64,000 nt of DNA from a virus. Taxonomy: Duplodnaviria > Caudoviricetes. The notes below the pieces were generated by a model, which searched no databases, was not told the origin of the DNA, and saw only the letters and a list, made by a program, of their open reading frames with translations. Shown here piece after piece: positions 3,992-46,886 of the stretch. Location: the IMG/VR virus record IMGVR_UViG_3300010347_002030; one strand, written 5' to 3'. The position numbers and the translations under genes are program-made. How positions within the stretch are numbered: position 1 is the first letter of the stretch; each line of letters begins with the position of its first letter.

Positions 3992-6889
3992 ATGGATAAA
4001 TTCAGATTGACTGATACTTTTCTTGACAAATACAAAAAACAAAAACCCCCATTTGGATTCAACGGACTTGGAGAACTTGTGTATTTACGCACATATTCCC
4101 GTGTTAAAGCTAATGGCGATAACGAGCGTTGGTGGGAAACTGTTCAACGAGTTGTAGAAGGAACTTTCAACATGCAGAAGAGATGGATTGATGACCATCG
4201 TCTTGGTTGGAGTGCCATCAAAGCACAGAAGTCTGCTCAAGAAATGTATGACAGGATTTTCAATATGAAATTCCTTCCTCCCGGTAGAGGATTGTGGGCC
4301 ATGGGCTCACCGATTACAGAAGAGCGTGGTCTCTATATGGCGTTGAATAACTGTCTGGCAGGAGAAACCAAAGTTTTGACTCGTCAAGGATGGAAAGAGA
4401 TAGCATTATTAGCCGGAACGGAACAAGAATTGGTTACTCTTCATAATGCATGGGTTACTGCACCGATCAAGTCATTTGGAAAACAACAACTTTATAAAAT
4501 AACACTTCGCCGACAGGGAATTGAAAAAAACATACATGCGACTGCTAATCACATATGGTTTGCCAAATCGCCATCAGAAATAAATCATAATAAAGGGTGG
4601 AATGAATATACAACTTCTCAATTGCGTGAAGGATATAGGATGCGGTATGGTTTTGCAGAAGTTCCTATGAATTATTCTCCTCAAGGGATTCAACATGGAA
4701 TATGTTTTGGCGATGGAACTAATGACCATCTGTATTTGATTGGGGAAAAAGACAAAGAACTTATTACGTGGTTTTCGACGAACGAAATAACTTTTGCACC
4801 AGAGAAAAAAGGAGTGCGAGTGGCACACTTACCATCTCATTATAAAGAACTTCCATGTATTGATTACGATAAAAAGTATCTTTTGGGATGGCTGATGGGA
4901 TATTTTGCTGCTGATGGAAGTGTTGATAAGAATGGTCAGGTAACGCTGAGTTCTTCCAATATAAATCATTTACATTTTGCGGCAGATGTGGCGGCTATAT
5001 GTGGAATTGGAACATATGGAATAACTCTTTCGAGCGAATCGTCGAACTTTTCGGAACATCGAGAGTTGTATAAACTTACATTTATGTCCGACACAATGTG
5101 GAAAGAATTTTTCCTGCTCGCATCTCATCGAGATAACTTTTGTGATGAGAGACAAGTTCGTTATTGGAATGTTGTATCGGTTGAGGAAACAAATCGCTAT
5201 GAGGAGGTTTATTGTGCCGTGGTTCCCAATACCGAAGCATTTGTTATTGAAGGTAATATTTTAACGCATAACTGTGCGTTCACCTCGACCGCAAACATTA
5301 AGGAAGATTTATCCAAGTCATTTTGTTTTTTGATGGATGTTTCTATGCTTGGTGTCGGATGTGGCTTCGATGTCAAGGGAGAAGGCAAGATTGTAGTACA
5401 TAAACCCGTTGAAAGCAAGGATAACGTGTATGTTATTCCGGACACTCGTGAAGGATGGGTAGAATCTGTTCGGTTACTTATTGATTCATTCTTTCAAGGA
5501 AGTAAAGAAGTTACTTTTGATTATTCTAAAATTCGTGGTCCCGGTGAACCAATTAAGGGATTTGGTGGAATATCATCTGGTTCCGGCCCGCTTAAGGAAC
5601 TTCATGCTGGTATTCGAGCTACTCTGAAAAAGAATGTTGATAAGCCAATTACAATTACCACGATTGTCGATATAATGAATATGATCGGTAAGTGTGTTGT
5701 AGCTGGTAATGTTCGCAGAACGGCAGAGATCGTTTTTGGTGATTACAAATCCGAGGAATACCTTGACCTTAAAAACTATCAGATAAATCCTTATCGTGAG
5801 AGCTTTGGTTGGACATCGAACAATTCCATTTTCTGTGATTTGGGCATGGATTATTCTAGTGCAGTCAAGCGAACTCAAATTAACGGAGAACCGGGGTTTG
5901 CATGGTTGGAAAACATGAAGGGTTACTCTCGTATGAACAATGGTCCGGATAATAAAGATTGGAGAGTAGAGGGTGGAAATCCATGTTTGGAGCAAAGTCT
6001 TGAATCATATGAGGTTTGTAATCTTGTTGAGACTTTTCCTTATAACCACGAGACATTTGAGGATTATCTCATTACTTTGAAGTATGCCTACATGTATGCC
6101 AAGACAGTGACTTTAGGTCAAACACATTGGCCAGAGACGAACCGTGTAATGCTTCGCAATCGCCGAATTGGTTGTTCGATGAGTGGAATTGCCCAATTTG
6201 TTTCAACCCGTGGTCTTCACACCTTACGCCATTGGTGCAATGAGGGGTACAAGAAAATCGAATACTACGATGAGGTGTATTCTGATTGGCTGGCTATTCC
6301 TAAAAGCATTAAAAAAACTTCCGTCAAACCTTCTGGAACTGTTAGTCTGTTGGCGGGCGCAACACCGGGAGTACATTATCCTGAAAACGTATGCTACATT
6401 CGTCGAATGCGTTTGTCTAAGCATAGTGATCTTATTGCTCCATTGGAAGAGGCAGGATATAAGATTGAGCCTTGTTATGGATCAGAAGATTCAACGGTGG
6501 TCGTTGAGGTGCCTGTAAAAATCGGTGATAATATCAGATCCGTTAAAGACGTTAGCGTTTGGGAACAAGCAGCGTTAGCGGCTTTCATGCAAAAGTATTG
6601 GGCTGACAATCAGGTTTCTTGTACTATCACGTTCAAGAAAGAAGAGGCATCCCAATTGGAACCACTTTTGAATTTCTACCAATATCAACTTAAAGGCATA
6701 TCGTTCCTTCCTTTTACGGAAGAAAAGGTTTATCGGCAAATGCCTTATGAGAGTATTACTCTTAAAAAATATGAGGAACTTACGGCTAAGCTCAAACCCA
6801 TCAAGTTCAAAGGAATTAAGAATGAGGAAGCCGATGTTGATAAATTCTGTAATAACGACATTTGTGAAATAAAAGCGGTCAAGAAATAA
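3992..6889 (+). CDS. nrdJ: Class II adenosylcobalamin-dependent ribonucleotide reductase (monomeric RTPR type), intein-containing
   Basis: YLRTYSR, PPGRGLW, GNVRRTAEI, NPCLEQ radical Cys, VKPSGTVS, C-terminal CNNDIC. Confidence 0.95.
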   Translation: MDKFRLTDTFLDKYKKQKPPFGFNGLGELVYLRTYSRVKANGDNERWWETVQRVVEGTFNMQKRWIDDHRLGWSAIKAQKSAQEMYDRIFNMKFLPPGRGLWAMGSPITEERGLYMALNNCLAGETKVLTRQGWKEIALLAGTEQELVTLHNAWVTAPIKSFGKQQLYKITLRRQGIEKNIHATANHIWFAKSPSEINHNKGWNEYTTSQLREGYRMRYGFAEVPMNYSPQGIQHGICFGDGTNDHLYLIGEKDKELITWFSTNEITFAPEKKGVRVAHLPSHYKELPCIDYDKKYLLGWLMGYFAADGSVDKNGQVTLSSSNINHLHFAADVAAICGIGTYGITLSSESSNFSEHRELYKLTFMSDTMWKEFFLLASHRDNFCDERQVRYWNVVSVEETNRYEEVYCAVVPNTEAFVIEGNILTHNCAFTSTANIKEDLSKSFCFLMDVSMLGVGCGFDVKGEGKIVVHKPVESKDNVYVIPDTREGWVESVRLLIDSFFQGSKEVTFDYSKIRGPGEPIKGFGGISSGSGPLKELHAGIRATLKKNVDKPITITTIVDIMNMIGKCVVAGNVRRTAEIVFGDYKSEEYLDLKNYQINPYRESFGWTSNNSIFCDLGMDYSSAVKRTQINGEPGFAWLENMKGYSRMNNGPDNKDWRVEGGNPCLEQSLESYEVCNLVETFPYNHETFEDYLITLKYAYMYAKTVTLGQTHWPETNRVMLRNRRIGCSMSGIAQFVSTRGLHTLRHWCNEGYKKIEYYDEVYSDWLAIPKSIKKTSVKPSGTVSLLAGATPGVHYPENVCYIRRMRLSKHSDLIAPLEEAGYKIEPCYGSEDSTVVVEVPVKIGDNIRSVKDVSVWEQAALAAFMQKYWADNQVSCTITFKKEEASQLEPLLNFYQYQLKGISFLPFTEEKVYRQMPYESITLKKYEELTAKLKPIKFKGIKNEEADVDKFCNNDICEIKAVKK
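4352..5272 (+). mobile_element. Intein (307 aa) with LAGLIDADG endonuclease in NrdJ
   Basis: NN|CLAGETKV...ILTHN|C; block B TANH; HGICFGDG and LMGYFAADG. Confidence 0.93.
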
Positions 6890-12405: not shown

Positions 12406-12682
12406 GTTTTCCTTTGATTGGGTCTCCTTGTCGTTTGAGTTCTCCGTTGTCTTGAATACGATATATGAAGAGAGTGATTTCTTTCACGTTCTTGTCAAGT
12501 AACGTTACGAGCTTTTTAGGATCAGTTATCGCTACACGAACAAGGTTCTTGTTACCAAAGATGATAGCTTCATCCCATTGGGAATCAAACAATACCGCAT
12601 CCGTTCCAAGGAATATCATGTGAAAGGTATCCCCTTGTACATTATTCTTTTTGGAAGGGTTCAAAACTCGCTTAACAAGCAT
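12377..12682 (-). CDS. Hypothetical protein
   Basis: Start reassigned to MLVKRV, 3 nt after TATTTATA on the minus strand. Confidence 0.6.
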   Translation of the reverse strand: MLVKRVLNPSKKNNVQGDTFHMIFLGTDAVLFDSQWDEAIIFGNKNLVRVAITDPKKLVTLLDKNVKEITLFIYRIQDNGELKRQGDPIKGKPTELVIPNY

Positions 12683-14573: not shown

Positions 14574-14918
14574 TTAGCTAAGAAGTTTGTGGATGATCCC
14601 AAAGAGAATAAGACCTCCGATAAAGGATACTGGAAATATTGAGAGTTTCATAAACAATATCGCATTGATCATTGCGAGCCACATGGCCATGCAAATAGGA
14701 CAGGTGAGAAGTCTAATTATAAAACAATTGTGATACTGTCGAAGGTAGCCGTGATAGGTTAGAGAAACATCATCTTTTTTCTTCTCGTCGTAATCTTTGT
14801 ATTGGGAAATTCTGTTCAGTCCGAATAAACGGCAGTACTCAACATATGCCTCGGTTCTAAACCAAACAATCAGAAATAAGGATACAACGGAACTCGATAT
14901 TAAGATTGTTGCAATCAT
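14574..14918 (-). CDS. Small membrane protein, DUF1360-like
   Basis: TM helices and LLTCPICMAMW motif. Confidence 0.6.
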   Translation of the reverse strand: MIATILISSSVVSLFLIVWFRTEAYVEYCRLFGLNRISQYKDYDEKKKDDVSLTYHGYLRQYHNCFIIRLLTCPICMAMWLAMINAILFMKLSIFPVSFIGGLILFGIIHKLLS

Positions 14919-14921
14919 ATC

Positions 14922-16136
14922 TCATGAACTACCCACCCGCTCAAGCAGGTGGGTTTCCGCCCCAACCAACTGCCCGTTATTTCTAACAGGTCTTACGTCA
15001 GGACAGGCGACTAACCCCGTAGTTCCTACGGTTAAATTTAATCCTTGTCTCAGGATGTTTCGTGAAGCATTCAAATCTCTATCCAGTAGAGTTTGGCATC
15101 GTGGGCATTCCCATTCTCTCATATTCAATGAGAGATTTTCGTTAATATGTCCACAATGAGAGCAGGTTTTGGATGATGGAAAAAATCTATCTATTTTTAT
15201 TACTTTCCGACCATACCATCTTGCTTTATAGGTCAACTGCCTCACAAGTTCTCCCCAAGAAGCATCTCCAATGGATTTGGACAGACAACGATTTGCCATC
15301 ATATTCTTCACGGACAAATCCTCCAGACAAATTACTTGGTTTTCGTTAATCAGTTTGGATGTGATTTGGTGAAGGTGATTATGACGGATGTTGGCAATCT
15401 TCACTTGGAGTTTGCCGACTTTCAATCTTGCCTTGTCTCTGCCTTTGGAACCTTTCTTGGTTCTACTCAACGCTTGTTGTCTTGTCTTTAATAGTTTCTC
15501 ATACTTTTTGGTGGTCTTAATGTTAGGAAATTGTTGTCCATCGGAACATTGGACAAGAGATTTAATGCCTAAATCTATGCCAATAATCTTGTCTGCTTTG
15601 GGTTTGTGTTCAATGGTTCGGGTCACTCCGATACAGGCATAATACTGACCTGCTTTGTTCTTGGTGATTGTGGCATAGTTAATCTCACCTTTTACAGGTC
15701 TATGCTGGTCAATTCGGATGCCTTCCTTAAACTTTGGAAAGTATATCCTTCCATCTTCAATCGTAACAAATTGGGGAACACGAAATGACTGTTTGTTCTT
15801 CTTGGACTTAAATCGTGGAAACCTTGCCAGTTTCTTAAAGAACCTATTGTATGCTCCATCGAGATGCTTAATGGCGTGTTGAAGTGATTGGGCATTACAT
15901 TCATTCAACCATTTAGTTTCCTCTTTGGATTTGATTTGAGTTAGTTCCTTTGCCATGTCCACATAGGTTAATGTTTTCTTGGCAAGTTGTTTCTCTTTCG
16001 CTTCCAAGTAGAACTTGGTCTTACGGTCAAGGAATAGATTATACACATAACGAATGCTTCCGAAGTGTTTGGACAACAGAACTTCCTGCTCCTTAGTCGG
16101 AGTTAGGCGAAGTTTGTATGTATAATCCTGCTTCAT
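14922..16136 (-). CDS. tnpB: TnpB RNA-guided endonuclease
   Basis: N-terminal HTH, RuvC GIDLG / LEDL / DRDLNA, zinc finger CSHC..CPRC. Confidence 0.95.
   Translation of the reverse strand: MKQDYTYKLRLTPTKEQEVLLSKHFGSIRYVYNLFLDRKTKFYLEAKEKQLAKKTLTYVDMAKELTQIKSKEETKWLNECNAQSLQHAIKHLDGAYNRFFKKLARFPRFKSKKNKQSFRVPQFVTIEDGRIYFPKFKEGIRIDQHRPVKGEINYATITKNKAGQYYACIGVTRTIEHKPKADKIIGIDLGIKSLVQCSDGQQFPNIKTTKKYEKLLKTRQQALSRTKKGSKGRDKARLKVGKLQVKIANIRHNHLHQITSKLINENQVICLEDLSVKNMMANRCLSKSIGDASWGELVRQLTYKARWYGRKVIKIDRFFPSSKTCSHCGHINENLSLNMREWECPRCQTLLDRDLNASRNILRQGLNLTVGTTGLVACPDVRPVRNNGQLVGAETHLLERVGSS
14924..15100 (-). ncRNA. Predicted TnpB omega/reRNA scaffold (5' boundary uncertain)
   Basis: Inferred from known IS605 architecture: it overlaps the tnpB 3' end and right end; the guide would be the flank GAGATATGATTGCAAC. 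Confidence 0.45.
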
Positions 16137-16543
16137 CCTTGGGTCTTGATGTATTCCAAAATGGTTTGGGTAGATACGTCTCCCGTAGAGCAGACAAAGT
16201 ATCCGTCCGACCAGAATACGTGTTTCTTCCAGAAGTGTTGTTTCAACTCATTGGAATGATGCTTCCATATATTCCAAGTCGTCTCTTGTTTGAGATATTG
16301 GACTAAGGAAGTTGGAGACAGAGTAGGTGGAACATCAACTAACAGATGGATGTGGTCTTTATCGGTATTCATCATATCCACAATCACATCATTCTTTTTA
16401 CAAACATCCATACAGAACTGCTTAATATCGTCGTCAATTGCTCCTGTGAGGATTGCCTTACGATATTTCACTACAAATACGATGTGTAGTTTCAACAGAT
16501 ACTTACATCGGTTCTTTGTATGGTATTTCTTTATTCTACTCAT
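16133..16543 (-). CDS. tnpA: IS200-type Y1 HUH transposase
   Basis: HIVFVVKYR, DHIH (HUH), FWSDGYF, catalytic Tyr in EYI. Confidence 0.95.
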   Translation of the reverse strand: MSRIKKYHTKNRCKYLLKLHIVFVVKYRKAILTGAIDDDIKQFCMDVCKKNDVIVDMMNTDKDHIHLLVDVPPTLSPTSLVQYLKQETTWNIWKHHSNELKQHFWKKHVFWSDGYFVCSTGDVSTQTILEYIKTQG

Positions 16544-16733
16544 ACATATATTCCAGAAGTAGAAAGAGTATAACTATTTTCACCTTTCTTTACTGGTCGC
16601 ATTCATCCCATCCGCTGAAAGCAGATGGGTTTTCTGCTCCCGTCAAAGATAAATATCATTTGGCCTCATCAAAAAGAAATACTAGTTCTGATTTTCACTA
16701 CCAATAGACTAGCTGATTTTCTCAAAAACTTTC

Positions 16734-44447: not shown

Positions 44448-46886
44448 ATGTATCAGAATATTTTCGTAGATCGCCGTAATGGCGTAGTTCACCTTTGGGA
44501 TGATGAGAAAGGCCACATCGATTTTCCCATTGAAGCGGTGCATTACGCTTATCGGAAGAAAAAAGGTGGCGAATACAAGTCTCTGTACGGTGATGAACTT
44601 GAAGAAACGATGTATTACACCGACGGTGATAATTCGTTATTTGAATCTGATGTTTCGCCGGAAGTTAAGACGTTAACCAAGATTTACGAAGATAGTGATG
44701 ATCCGTCAGAGGGTCATCGCATTGGGGTCATCGACATTGAAGTTGATTCTACTGGTGGGTTTCCAAATAAAGAAACCGGAGACAAGGAAATCACTTGTAT
44801 TGCTCTTTACGATTCCGCAACTGAAAAATTTTTCTCTTTTGTTCTTGATCCAGAAGGCAAAATTCCACCACGCACCGAGAAAGTCAAACTGAAATCATCT
44901 GATACCAAGGAATATAATTGGGAAATTCGTTCGTTCAGAATCGAGGAAAAACTCTTGGAGAATTTTCTGAATCAATGGGAACAATGTAACTTTACGATTG
45001 TCACCGGTTGGAACTGTATTCCAATCAATCAGTCGGTGTGGACGAGAAATCGGATTGTCCCAATTAAAGACCTAAACTCGAATCATCTCTATAACTCCAC
45101 CTTGAGACGGACGTTCCCGAAAACGGTGAAGGAAAAATGGCGTATCACACTTGAGAATGGCCAAATCGTAGAATCATCGGGAGATCATCGGTTTCCCGTA
45201 AAACTTGTAAATCCCAAGGAATATATTACGTTTCAAACATCTCCCAAGTCTAATATTCTAGATGCGGACTTGAAAACACGTCAGATTTCATCTTTTATTA
45301 AATGCTTGGATGTTTACTGTTCGGTGCCCATGCGAAAAAATACAGAACCCGATGATGAGACTTATACATTGGACCAATTATATTTGGCGGGATTGATATA
45401 TACGGATGGGACGTTGAAAGATCCCAACGAAATTCTTCGAGGATATACTTTTTATCAGTCGGACGTGGAGTTGATGGAATATTTGTCTGAACTTGGATTA
45501 CAAAGTTCGATTTCGGGACCAAATAAAGGATGTTATTCCAGATATGTTAATTTTTCATATTTGGGTAAGGCCAGCGAGTTGATATATTCTGGAAATCGGA
45601 AAAAACTTAATTTAGAAAAACTATCGGCACTCTCATACAGACAGTTTATGCGGTTCCTTTCGGGTCTTCTAGACGGAGATGGATGTAAGACTAATGGCGT
45701 GGGATTTTCATTATGCAATTTTAATGGGGATCTGGATACTTTACAAGAACTCTGCCAGTGGAATGGGATATTTTGTACCCGGACACAATCTACTCTTAGG
45801 TTTATCGATATTTGTTTTGAAGATCTAACCGTTCAAAAAAAATCACGCTGGCAAAATCAGCAAGAGTCGAGTTTTTCACGAGTATCGAAGCAAAAATCTG
45901 AGCAAACTCGATTCAAAAAGCTTGGAGACGTTTACTGGGTTAAAGTTCGATCCGTAGAATATATTGGAACCTCAACTCAAATGACCGACATTGAGACGGA
46001 TACTCATTATTTTGTCAGTCGGGGAGTTACGACTCATAATTGTAATGATTTTGACATGCCCTATATCTTTGCCCGTCTTCGCACGGTACTTGGAAAGAAA
46101 ATGGGGTATAAGCTTTCTCCTGTTGGAATTGCATATCTTCATCGGTTTACTCAAACAATGAGGATTGCCGGAATTTCTCTTTTGGATTACATGGAACTTT
46201 ACAAAAAGTTCATTGGAAAAGATCAGCCAAGTTTTTCGTTGGGGTACATTGGACAGGAAGAAGTTGAGATTGGAAAAACGGTATTTAAGGGAAGTTTGGT
46301 TCAACTCTATAAACAGGATTTGAATCGCTATGTGGAATACAACTTGAACGACGTGAAGATCGTTGTAGCTCTCGACAAGAAATTGGATTTCATTCACCTT
46401 GCACGTTCGGTTTGCCACAAGGGGCATGTTCCTTACGAATGGTACATGTATTCGTCACGTTGGATTGATGGTGCCTTGTTGACGTATCTTCACCGAAATA
46501 AGCTCATTGCTCCAAATAGGCCAGAAGGTGGAAGAGAAACCTATGAAACAATGAAGGAAGAGGGAGCTGAGGGATTTGAAGGTGCGTATGTCAAAGATCC
46601 AGTACCGGGGTTATATGATTGGGTCTATTCTTCTGATGTGACTTCACTATATCCCTCGGTTATTATGTCCCTGAATATTTCTCCCGAAACCAAAGTGGGT
46701 AAGATTGAAAATTGGGACACCGAAAAGTTTGTTAATGGACAAGTTGGTGCGGTAAAGATAGGAGAAGTCCAATATACGGCGGAACAGTTCAAAGAGCTTA
46801 TTAAAGACGGGTGTATGAGTATTAGTTCCAACGGAGTTTTGTACAAACAACCTGTCAAAAAAATAGTGGGTAAAATACTCCCATGA
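44448..46886 (+). CDS. Family B DNA polymerase, N-terminal part (3'-5' exonuclease plus motif A), intein-containing
   Basis: DIEV ExoI, GWN..FD ExoII, YNLND ExoIII, GAYV, DVTSLYPS. Confidence 0.92.
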   Translation: MYQNIFVDRRNGVVHLWDDEKGHIDFPIEAVHYAYRKKKGGEYKSLYGDELEETMYYTDGDNSLFESDVSPEVKTLTKIYEDSDDPSEGHRIGVIDIEVDSTGGFPNKETGDKEITCIALYDSATEKFFSFVLDPEGKIPPRTEKVKLKSSDTKEYNWEIRSFRIEEKLLENFLNQWEQCNFTIVTGWNCIPINQSVWTRNRIVPIKDLNSNHLYNSTLRRTFPKTVKEKWRITLENGQIVESSGDHRFPVKLVNPKEYITFQTSPKSNILDADLKTRQISSFIKCLDVYCSVPMRKNTEPDDETYTLDQLYLAGLIYTDGTLKDPNEILRGYTFYQSDVELMEYLSELGLQSSISGPNKGCYSRYVNFSYLGKASELIYSGNRKKLNLEKLSALSYRQFMRFLSGLLDGDGCKTNGVGFSLCNFNGDLDTLQELCQWNGIFCTRTQSTLRFIDICFEDLTVQKKSRWQNQQESSFSRVSKQKSEQTRFKKLGDVYWVKVRSVEYIGTSTQMTDIETDTHYFVSRGVTTHNCNDFDMPYIFARLRTVLGKKMGYKLSPVGIAYLHRFTQTMRIAGISLLDYMELYKKFIGKDQPSFSLGYIGQEEVEIGKTVFKGSLVQLYKQDLNRYVEYNLNDVKIVVALDKKLDFIHLARSVCHKGHVPYEWYMYSSRWIDGALLTYLHRNKLIAPNRPEGGRETYETMKEEGAEGFEGAYVKDPVPGLYDWVYSSDVTSLYPSVIMSLNISPETKVGKIENWDTEKFVNGQVGAVKIGEVQYTAEQFKELIKDGCMSISSNGVLYKQPVKKIVGKILP
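45015..46040 (+). mobile_element. Intein (342 aa) with LAGLIDADG endonuclease in PolB ExoII
   Basis: GWN|CIPINQ...TTHN|CNDFD; SGDH; LAGLIYTDG, LSGLLDGDG. Confidence 0.92.

Follow-up and report, generated by a model that had tools for sequence, protein, structure and literature searches.

Between a glycosyltransferase gene and the gene for a small membrane protein, a large T4-like phage from activated sludge carries a transposon of the IS200/IS605 type, with the single-strand transposase TnpA and the RNA-guided nuclease homolog TnpB. The phage is represented by a stretch of 64,000 nucleotides (IMG/VR record IMGVR_UViG_3300010347_002030; here the window), and the target of the transposon lies within an AT-rich box that recurs just ahead of gene starts. 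This raises the question of whether the element is directed to such boxes or came to lie in one by accident. We investigated this by comparing the element with its relatives and the insertion site with its counterparts in related phages. The reading that very probably accounts for the whole locus is that an autonomous IS200/IS605 element, which targets the pentamer TTTAT, inserted by chance in a gene-start box of the phage. The element is in this respect ordinary IS200/IS605 biology, and a member of a known transposon family.

The element occupies positions 14924-16648 on the minus strand (1725 bp), is present in one copy in the window, and has its own tnpA and tnpB, which overlap by four bases (Table 1). 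The HUH motif of TnpA (HIH) and its C-terminal tyrosine, in the motif EYIKTQ, both align with those of ISHp608 TnpA, and the protein aligns to the TnpA structures from ISHp608 and Sulfolobus. Residues 6-368 of TnpB align with ISDra2 TnpB (PDB 8bf8, 8exa and 8h1j; phmmer E 8e-72), such that ISDra2 D191, E278 and D361 are matched by D188, the Glu in LEDL and the second Asp in DRD, and both CxxC pairs of the zinc finger (CxxC...CxxC) are present. TnpB is hence a predicted RNA-guided nuclease with a complete RuvC triad and zinc finger, and the Pfam domains and the ISDra2 alignment bear out the initial annotation of this DNA, which had described an IS605/TnpB element with an intact triad. That annotation had also pointed out that the tnpB stop codon is completed by two flanking bases. 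This is indeed so, as the TGA at 14924-14922 consists of the last T of the element and GA from the flank, but it is best read as an accident of this copy. In the relatives tnpB stops at a TAG in the loop of the right-end hairpin (CTTTAGCG); here the loop reads CTTGAGCG, and because the loop TAG has been replaced the frame is 4-6 codons longer and extends to the TGA at the junction.

The ends of the element could be fixed independently of any rule for guide pairing. A scan of IMG/VR with a right-end word recovered 68 stretches with 53 distinct right ends, all of which stop at GTAGTTCAT and continue into unrelated flanks. Both ends are available for 25 copies, and all 25 start directly after TTTAT and end in ...GGGTAGTTCAT. 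In run X4 (2024), a contig follows the element up to position 14924 precisely, beyond which it has a differing flank (TTCAT followed by CATGAAAGACC); this flank was sought in the window and is not there. Because the related ends and the break in X4 agree, the element is delimited as 14924-16648, with TTTAT as the target and transposon-associated motif (TAM) and TTCAT as the transposon-end motif (TEM); for TnpB, we infer the TAM from this transposon flank. Both motifs are invariant within the lineage. On the minus strand the left flank ends in ...AAATGATATTTAT, the element begins at 16648 with CTTTGACGG, and its last base, 14924, is followed by a right flank that begins with GAGATATGATTGC. The left end (LE) is laid out as CTTTGACGGGAGCAG-AAAA and a hairpin of CCCATCTGC TTTCA GCGGATGGG, and the right end (RE) as GAAA, a hairpin of CCCACCTGC TTGA GCGGGTGGG, and TAGTTCAT; both ends thus have subterminal imperfect palindromes, and terminal inverted repeats are absent. 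The hairpin arms covary between copies (CCCATCTGC/GCGGATGGG, CTCCTACG/CGTAGGAG and CCCACCTGC/GCGGGTGGG). The foot of the left hairpin is at +20, i.e. 19 nt from the cleavage site, which is the same geometry as in IS608 (PMC3201880). By the pairing rule, which is derived from the literature, AAAA matches with TTAT and GAAA with TCAT. Thus the ends, the TTAT-based target and the guide geometry of the initial annotation all stand.

Table 1. Features of the insertion locus, copies of the gene-start box in the window, and examples of short derivatives of the element in IMG/VR
Feature	Position or locus	Strand	Remarks
TATTTAT gene-start box, 5' remnant of the insertion site	16649-16655	-	TnpA target and putative TnpB TAM: TTTAT at 16653-16649, the final five bases
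Left end (LE)	16544-16648	-	first base 16648; guide AAAA 16633-16630 (+16..+19); imperfect palindrome 16629-16607
tnpA	16133-16543	-	Y1/HUH single-strand transposase, 136 aa; Pfam Y1_Tnp PF01797, E 4.7e-36
tnpB	14922-16136	-	404 aa; Pfam OrfB_IS605, Cas12f-like TNB (PF07282, E 5.7e-26), HTH_OrfB
Right end (RE) and putative omega-RNA scaffold	14924-15100	-	guide GAAA 14957-14954; palindrome 14953-14932; transposon-end motif TTCAT 14928-14924
Flank, putative omega-RNA guide GAGATATGATTGCAACAATC	14904-14923	-	directly 3' of RE; role by analogy with ISDra2 and ISGst2 (PMC8612924, PMC10055086)
Downstream phage gene, small membrane protein, 114 aa	14574-14918	-	ATG at 14918; frame intact; box cut off by the insertion
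TATTTATA ahead of an ATG with at least 60 codons	1664, 7732, 42885, 59697	+	
TATTTATA ahead of an ATG with at least 60 codons	12693	-	
Sixth ATG-linked TATTTATA	6923	+	short frame behind
Relics of 48-49 bp (examples)	L036:655-703, L048, L050, L052, L058, L079, L081		IMG/VR, within loci L031-L096
ORF-less derivatives of 235-298 bp (examples)	L042, L049, L057, L068, L074		IMG/VR, within loci L031-L096

The initial annotation had reconstructed the site as it would be before insertion and had named the junctions of a real empty allele as its decisive check. A search with the neighboring deoxynucleoside monophosphate (dNMP) kinase uncovered the syntenic loci L025-L030 with the common gene order clamp loader, kinase, 96-aa gene, 114-aa gene and glycosyltransferase, whose proteins are 57-79% identical (57-72% for the orthologs of the 114-aa protein). 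In L025 the site (minus strand, ~6285-6265) reads ATGATATTTAT joined directly to GAGATATGAT, that is TTTAT followed by GAGAT with nothing duplicated, and the stretch ahead of the 114-aa gene, GAAATGATATTTATGAGATATGATGGG, matches the reconstructed, element-free window base for base along 21 nt. Close variants of the same empty site are seen in L026 (TGATATTTATGGAGTATG) and L027 (TGATACTTATAGGATATG). The predicted junctions were therefore those found. Read on the minus strand, the insertion parts the gene that starts at 14918 from its box and places tnpA and tnpB behind it. The box was not rebuilt in the process, because the last eight bases of the element, TAGTTCAT, differ from TATTTAT-G at two positions. 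Three other loci retrieved by protein similarity, L001 and L002 (29% identical relatives of the 114-aa protein) and L003 (a glycosyltransferase relative), are not syntenic at the site and were set aside. In L028 (6394-7763, minus strand; the same as L029), from the 368-kb phage contig IMGVR_UViG_3300025162_000016, the intergenic gap that holds the element in the window is likewise occupied, by an IS605 element that lacks tnpA. This closely resembles the window element at its ends, but the two TnpB proteins share only 45% identity, and it follows a different TTTAT, 14 nt upstream of an intact TATTTAT-N5-ATG box; we regard it as an independent insertion in that gap.

The nature of the box itself bears directly on how the insertion is understood. 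The perfect octamer TATTTATA occurs eight times in the window, and five of the eight are followed within 12 nt by a same-strand ATG with at least 60 codons, against a base rate of 0.057 (binomial p 2.9e-5, uncorrected for the many 8-mers tested). Of the 8-mers with at least four ATG-linked occurrences, which are those that were tested, it has the top rank. The general form is TATTTAT(A/G) followed by ATG after a gap of 0-8 nt, mostly 3-4 nt. At the gene at 12682 on the minus strand, TATTTATA-N3-ATG is common to the orthologs of the window, L025, L027 and L028, and the 114-aa gene has TATTTAT-N5-ATG in L025, L026, L028 and the reconstructed window. Two orthologous gene starts, with proteins that are 48-72% identical between the phages, have hence kept the box but not its neighboring bases. 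Because it both recurs before ATG and is conserved at orthologous starts, the box is, on comparative grounds, a real conserved signal, and the recurrent motif of the initial annotation is upheld.

The further claim that this motif is a late promoter fares less well. The conserved box stands, but nothing marks it as late. Read on the sense strand, the box is the T4 late box in reverse complement, and the features of T4-type late promoters, i.e. TATAAATA on the sense strand, ~6-7 nt before the transcript start and ahead of particle genes, were not found at these boxes, which stand 0-8 nt before the ATG. PHROGs and Pfam gave no informative match for the genes that follow the box, and none of them is a particle gene; the sub-informative matches are of a coiled-coil type below threshold, a borderline FecR match (24.7 bits, cut-off 24) and a weak DUF1360 match. 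In the literature we found no paper that describes TATTTATA as a phage promoter. From its arrangement the box is probably a phage-specific promoter that gives very short leaders or none, and this reading requires leaderless or near-leaderless transcripts because the box is so near the ATG. No Shine-Dalgarno-like sequence was seen at the starts with a box or at most other starts in the window, which would agree with a host that does not use one, perhaps of the Bacteroidota type. A live, if less likely, alternative is that TATTTAT(A) acts at the level of the mRNA as a start-codon signal, either for AU-rich initiation or as a repressor site of the T4 RegA type, such that the insertion would alter translation. 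It would suit the short distance to the ATG, the need for some other initiation signal at starts that have no Shine-Dalgarno sequence, and the N3 spacing, which is invariant across four phages at one set of orthologs. However, the box is absent from the majority of genes in the window, among them those in tight operons, and a general translation signal would be commoner; moreover, the orientation of the box flips with that of the gene and boxes are found at the heads of gene blocks, as is typical of promoters.

With the box established as a signal, the question is whether the element seeks it. Every box is a possible target and TAM because TATTTAT contains TTTAT, and the initial annotation was right that the TAM is found within other copies of the motif. 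The overlap does not amount to special targeting. Among the 25 family insertions with both ends, seven (28%) are in TATTTAT and 18 are outside the box, in terminator T-runs or plain AT-rich spacers. Outside the element the window has 264 occurrences of TTTAT, of which 16 are intergenic, and six of these 16 (37%) belong to TATTTAT. Since the share of insertions in the box is not above this intergenic share, there is no special preference for the box, and the simplest reading is a generic TTTAT target combined with the survival of intergenic insertions only. The family would then be found in boxes often only since boxes make up about one third of the intergenic TTTAT sites that tolerate insertion.

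It nevertheless deserves consideration that the family might be adapted to the gene-start box, with TTTAT selected as target and TAM since it lies within TATTTAT(A). Such an adaptation would provide harmless landing sites, expression from phage promoters forced in the sense direction, and many conserved homing targets across related phages. In keeping with it, the lineage is abundant in large phage contigs (the 68 IMG/VR stretches), and no close relative turned up when 185,579 prokaryote species were scanned with one genome each. The seven of 25 insertions in the box also exceed the 11% share of TATTTAT among all TTTAT in the loci examined (binomial p = 0.017), and the L028 gap has received a second element with a 45%-identical TnpB. 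Yet tolerance of intergenic insertions suffices to explain a share of 28%, most of the sites are plain TTTAT, including several in terminator T-runs, and ISGst2 of Geobacillus, which is not a phage element, also uses TTTAT. The prokaryote scan, moreover, works by exact peptide words and sees close relatives only, its best matches being 37-50% identical. We therefore consider adaptation to the box unlikely.

The history of the locus under a chance insertion can be outlined as follows. The element would have arrived as a single strand that TnpA integrated 3' of TTTAT by "peel and paste", with no duplication of the target, and by chance this TTTAT was the 3' part of the TATTTAT(A/G)-N3-5-ATG box of the small membrane-protein gene. 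Because the sense strand of the box is the one that reads TTTAT, insertion in a box is always sense-oriented. The box is now directed into tnpA-tnpB, with the downstream 114-aa gene probably expressed by read-through. Scans for sigma-70 promoters and terminators around the element gave none above the shuffled expectation. The 3' 180-230 nt of the element fold with z = -4.2 relative to shuffles, and a consensus fold of six copies retains 13 pairs through changes on both sides; this region is compatible with an omega-RNA scaffold, and an Rfam search with the right-end RNA matched no family. The start codon of the 114-aa gene falls within the putative guide that follows this region, GAGATATGATTGCAACAATC. 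TnpB with the RE-encoded omega-RNA would recognize TTTAT followed by GAGATATGATTGC... (TTTAT-GAGATATGATTGCAAC targets), and TTTAT-GAGATATGATTGC would be either an unoccupied allele or the donor joint after excision. Cutting of such sites may, by analogy with ISDra2 and ISGst2, lead to recombination that restores or spreads the element. That TnpB cuts IS-free sites is the standard view of the family (PMC10055086), from which we presume that the TnpB described here would cut IS-free alleles.

Several points weigh against this reconstruction. The omega-RNA, transcription from the box and read-through are parts of it that we infer rather than observe. A gap of 3-4 nt between the octamer and the ATG would put a T4-type transcript start, 6-7 nt downstream, inside the coding frame. 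The nearest empty-site relative is probably not a TnpB target, as L025 departs from the putative guide at position 11 (GAGATATGATG against GAGATATGATT in the guide). The empty allele of the same phage was not seen in contigs of runs X2, X3, X4 and X20, although contigs hide rare variants, and homing has thus not been observed at work. An exact search of IMG/VR with the empty-site word had no match, and among metagenome contigs a 22-nt junction word matched only at L024. We rejected this as a chance match, since it falls within an unrelated gene, on the opposite strand, and L024 has nothing else in common with the window.

The occupied allele is found in sludge and digester runs of 2016, 2020 and 2024, in contigs that bridge the left or the right junction. 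Its persistence, with no empty form alongside, is what would be expected of a decaying and immobile passenger that was fixed once and no longer transposes or homes, the intact frames reflecting only a recent arrival. The single copy in the window, the loss of the hairpin-loop stop of tnpB and the many degraded relatives, including tnpA-less forms, ORF-less forms of 235-298 bp and fused-end relics of 48-49 bp, can be read in the same way. We consider this improbable, as both genes are full length with all catalytic residues, and both hairpins and both guides are intact. Furthermore, a near-identical RE with another flank (CATGAAAGACC...) in X4 points to a second insertion site in the same community, and the family occupies at least 25 differing sites in phage contigs. 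Run X20 (2020), which is filed under a single organism name, has pieces identical to the phage, including the left junction, and also a second tnpB that is ~92% identical to that of the window (window 15495-16079).

The wider lineage is abundant in large phage contigs, with up to ~5 copies per contig. A protein scan of IMG/VR returned 12 loci with TnpB 83-88% identical to that of the window, and the copies recovered by the right-end word fall into four size classes, namely full-length elements of ~1725-1742 bp, tnpB-only forms of 1312-1425 bp, mini-elements of 235-298 bp without open reading frames (ORFs), and relics of 48-49 bp in which the start of the LE is fused to a hairpin and the tail of the RE (Table 1). 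All size classes follow TTTAT. TnpB genes have been annotated in hundreds of isolate phages. TnpB homologs are present in 456 GenBank phage records and are all <60% identical, and megablast of the element region against GenBank phages gave no match; the lineage so far appears only in large uncultured phages. The 83-kb contig IMGVR_UViG_3300025629_000434 (L011, L012, L048, L063, L077 and L080) has at least five right ends and two opposed tnpB copies with a common right flank and differing left flanks, a pattern that could be the result of recombination between copies or an assembly artefact.

A lineage with four size forms raises the idea of RNA-guided homing between co-infecting phages, comparable to that of the protein homing endonucleases of T4. 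In its strongest version this would be a phage-resident IS605 lineage that completes its life cycle in large T4-like phages, with TATTTAT boxes serving both as orientation-locked safe harbors and as promoters of tnpA and tnpB. We hold this to be possible, if somewhat unlikely; were it true, the lineage would be the transposon counterpart of the Seg and Mob endonucleases. Like those free-standing enzymes (PMC2988022), the element is a selfish nuclease gene between conserved phage genes, and it would be expected to cut the allele without it in a co-infection and to be copied by recombination. In contrast to them, its target would be read by RNA and a TAM rather than by protein, and with a transposase and defined ends it can reach new sites.

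Among studied elements the closest, compared by its published features, is ISGst2 with GstTnpB2 of Geobacillus stearothermophilus, for which a TTTAT TAM and ORF-less relatives have been reported (Meers et al. 2023, PMC10055086). Both belong to the IS605 family, use 5'-TTTAT as TAM and target, and have a TTCA-type end motif (TTCAC in ISGst2, TTCAT here), DNA guides that precede the hairpins and pair with TAM and TEM, TnpB with an RE-encoded omega-RNA (putative here) and ORF-less derivatives akin to palindrome-associated transposable elements. ISGst2, however, is mobilized in trans and resides in a bacterial chromosome, whereas the present element has its own tnpA and resides in large T4-like phages. 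With IS608 (ISHp608) of Helicobacter pylori (PMC3201880) it shares the tnpA and tnpB layout, a Y1/HUH TnpA, a left cleavage site 19 nt ahead of the hairpin foot, a four-base guide on the 5' side of either hairpin, and insertion 3' of a short motif without duplication. It differs in target and end (TTAC and TCAA in IS608, TT(T)AT and TCAT here) and in the right cleavage, which is 10 nt past the hairpin foot in IS608 and 8 nt here, and its TnpA is only distantly aligned (phmmer E 1e-16). The best natural relative with a solved structure is ISDra2 TnpB of Deinococcus radiodurans (PMC8612924), with which the RuvC triad and zinc finger align, and which differs in its TTGAT TAM, bacterial host and C-terminal tail. 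The T4 late promoter TATAAATA, which depends on gp55, gp33 and gp45, is likewise an 8-bp AT-rich box in a T4-like phage and has the same duplex sequence as the gene-start box; here, by contrast, the sense strand has the reverse complement, TATTTATA, at 0-8 nt before the ATG, and no particle gene follows it in the window. We found no paper on IS605/TnpB elements placed in phage promoters. The locus is a fully resolved natural example, in which the ends, the TAM, the guide and, from a relative, the corresponding empty site are all defined, and it could be used directly for TnpB and TnpA assays. The insertion is also a natural "knock-out" of the TATTTAT box at one gene, and may help to reveal the role of the box.

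Public runs with the window stretch are activated-sludge and anaerobic-digester metagenomes. Two genes of the window, those for a B-family DNA polymerase and a class II ribonucleotide reductase, contain an intein each. The window also codes for a DnaB-like helicase, a clamp-loader subunit, the dNMP kinase, and a long run of sugar-nucleotide and glycosyltransferase genes; no recognizable particle genes are found in it. The intein-type insertions in the reductase and the polymerase (window 3992-6889 and 44448-46886, both plus strand) are supported by Intein_splicing matches, and the one in the reductase has a LAGLIDADG domain. The phage thus carries several kinds of selfish elements besides the insertion sequence. 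Between the stop of the glycosyltransferase gene and the TATTTAT box, the window has a 78-nt spacer (16656-16733, minus strand) that can be aligned to the 3'-terminal part of an additional ORF, ~700 nt long and methyltransferase-like by its position, which sits between the glycosyltransferase and 114-aa genes in L025 and L026. The window phage seems to have lost this ORF but kept its tail.

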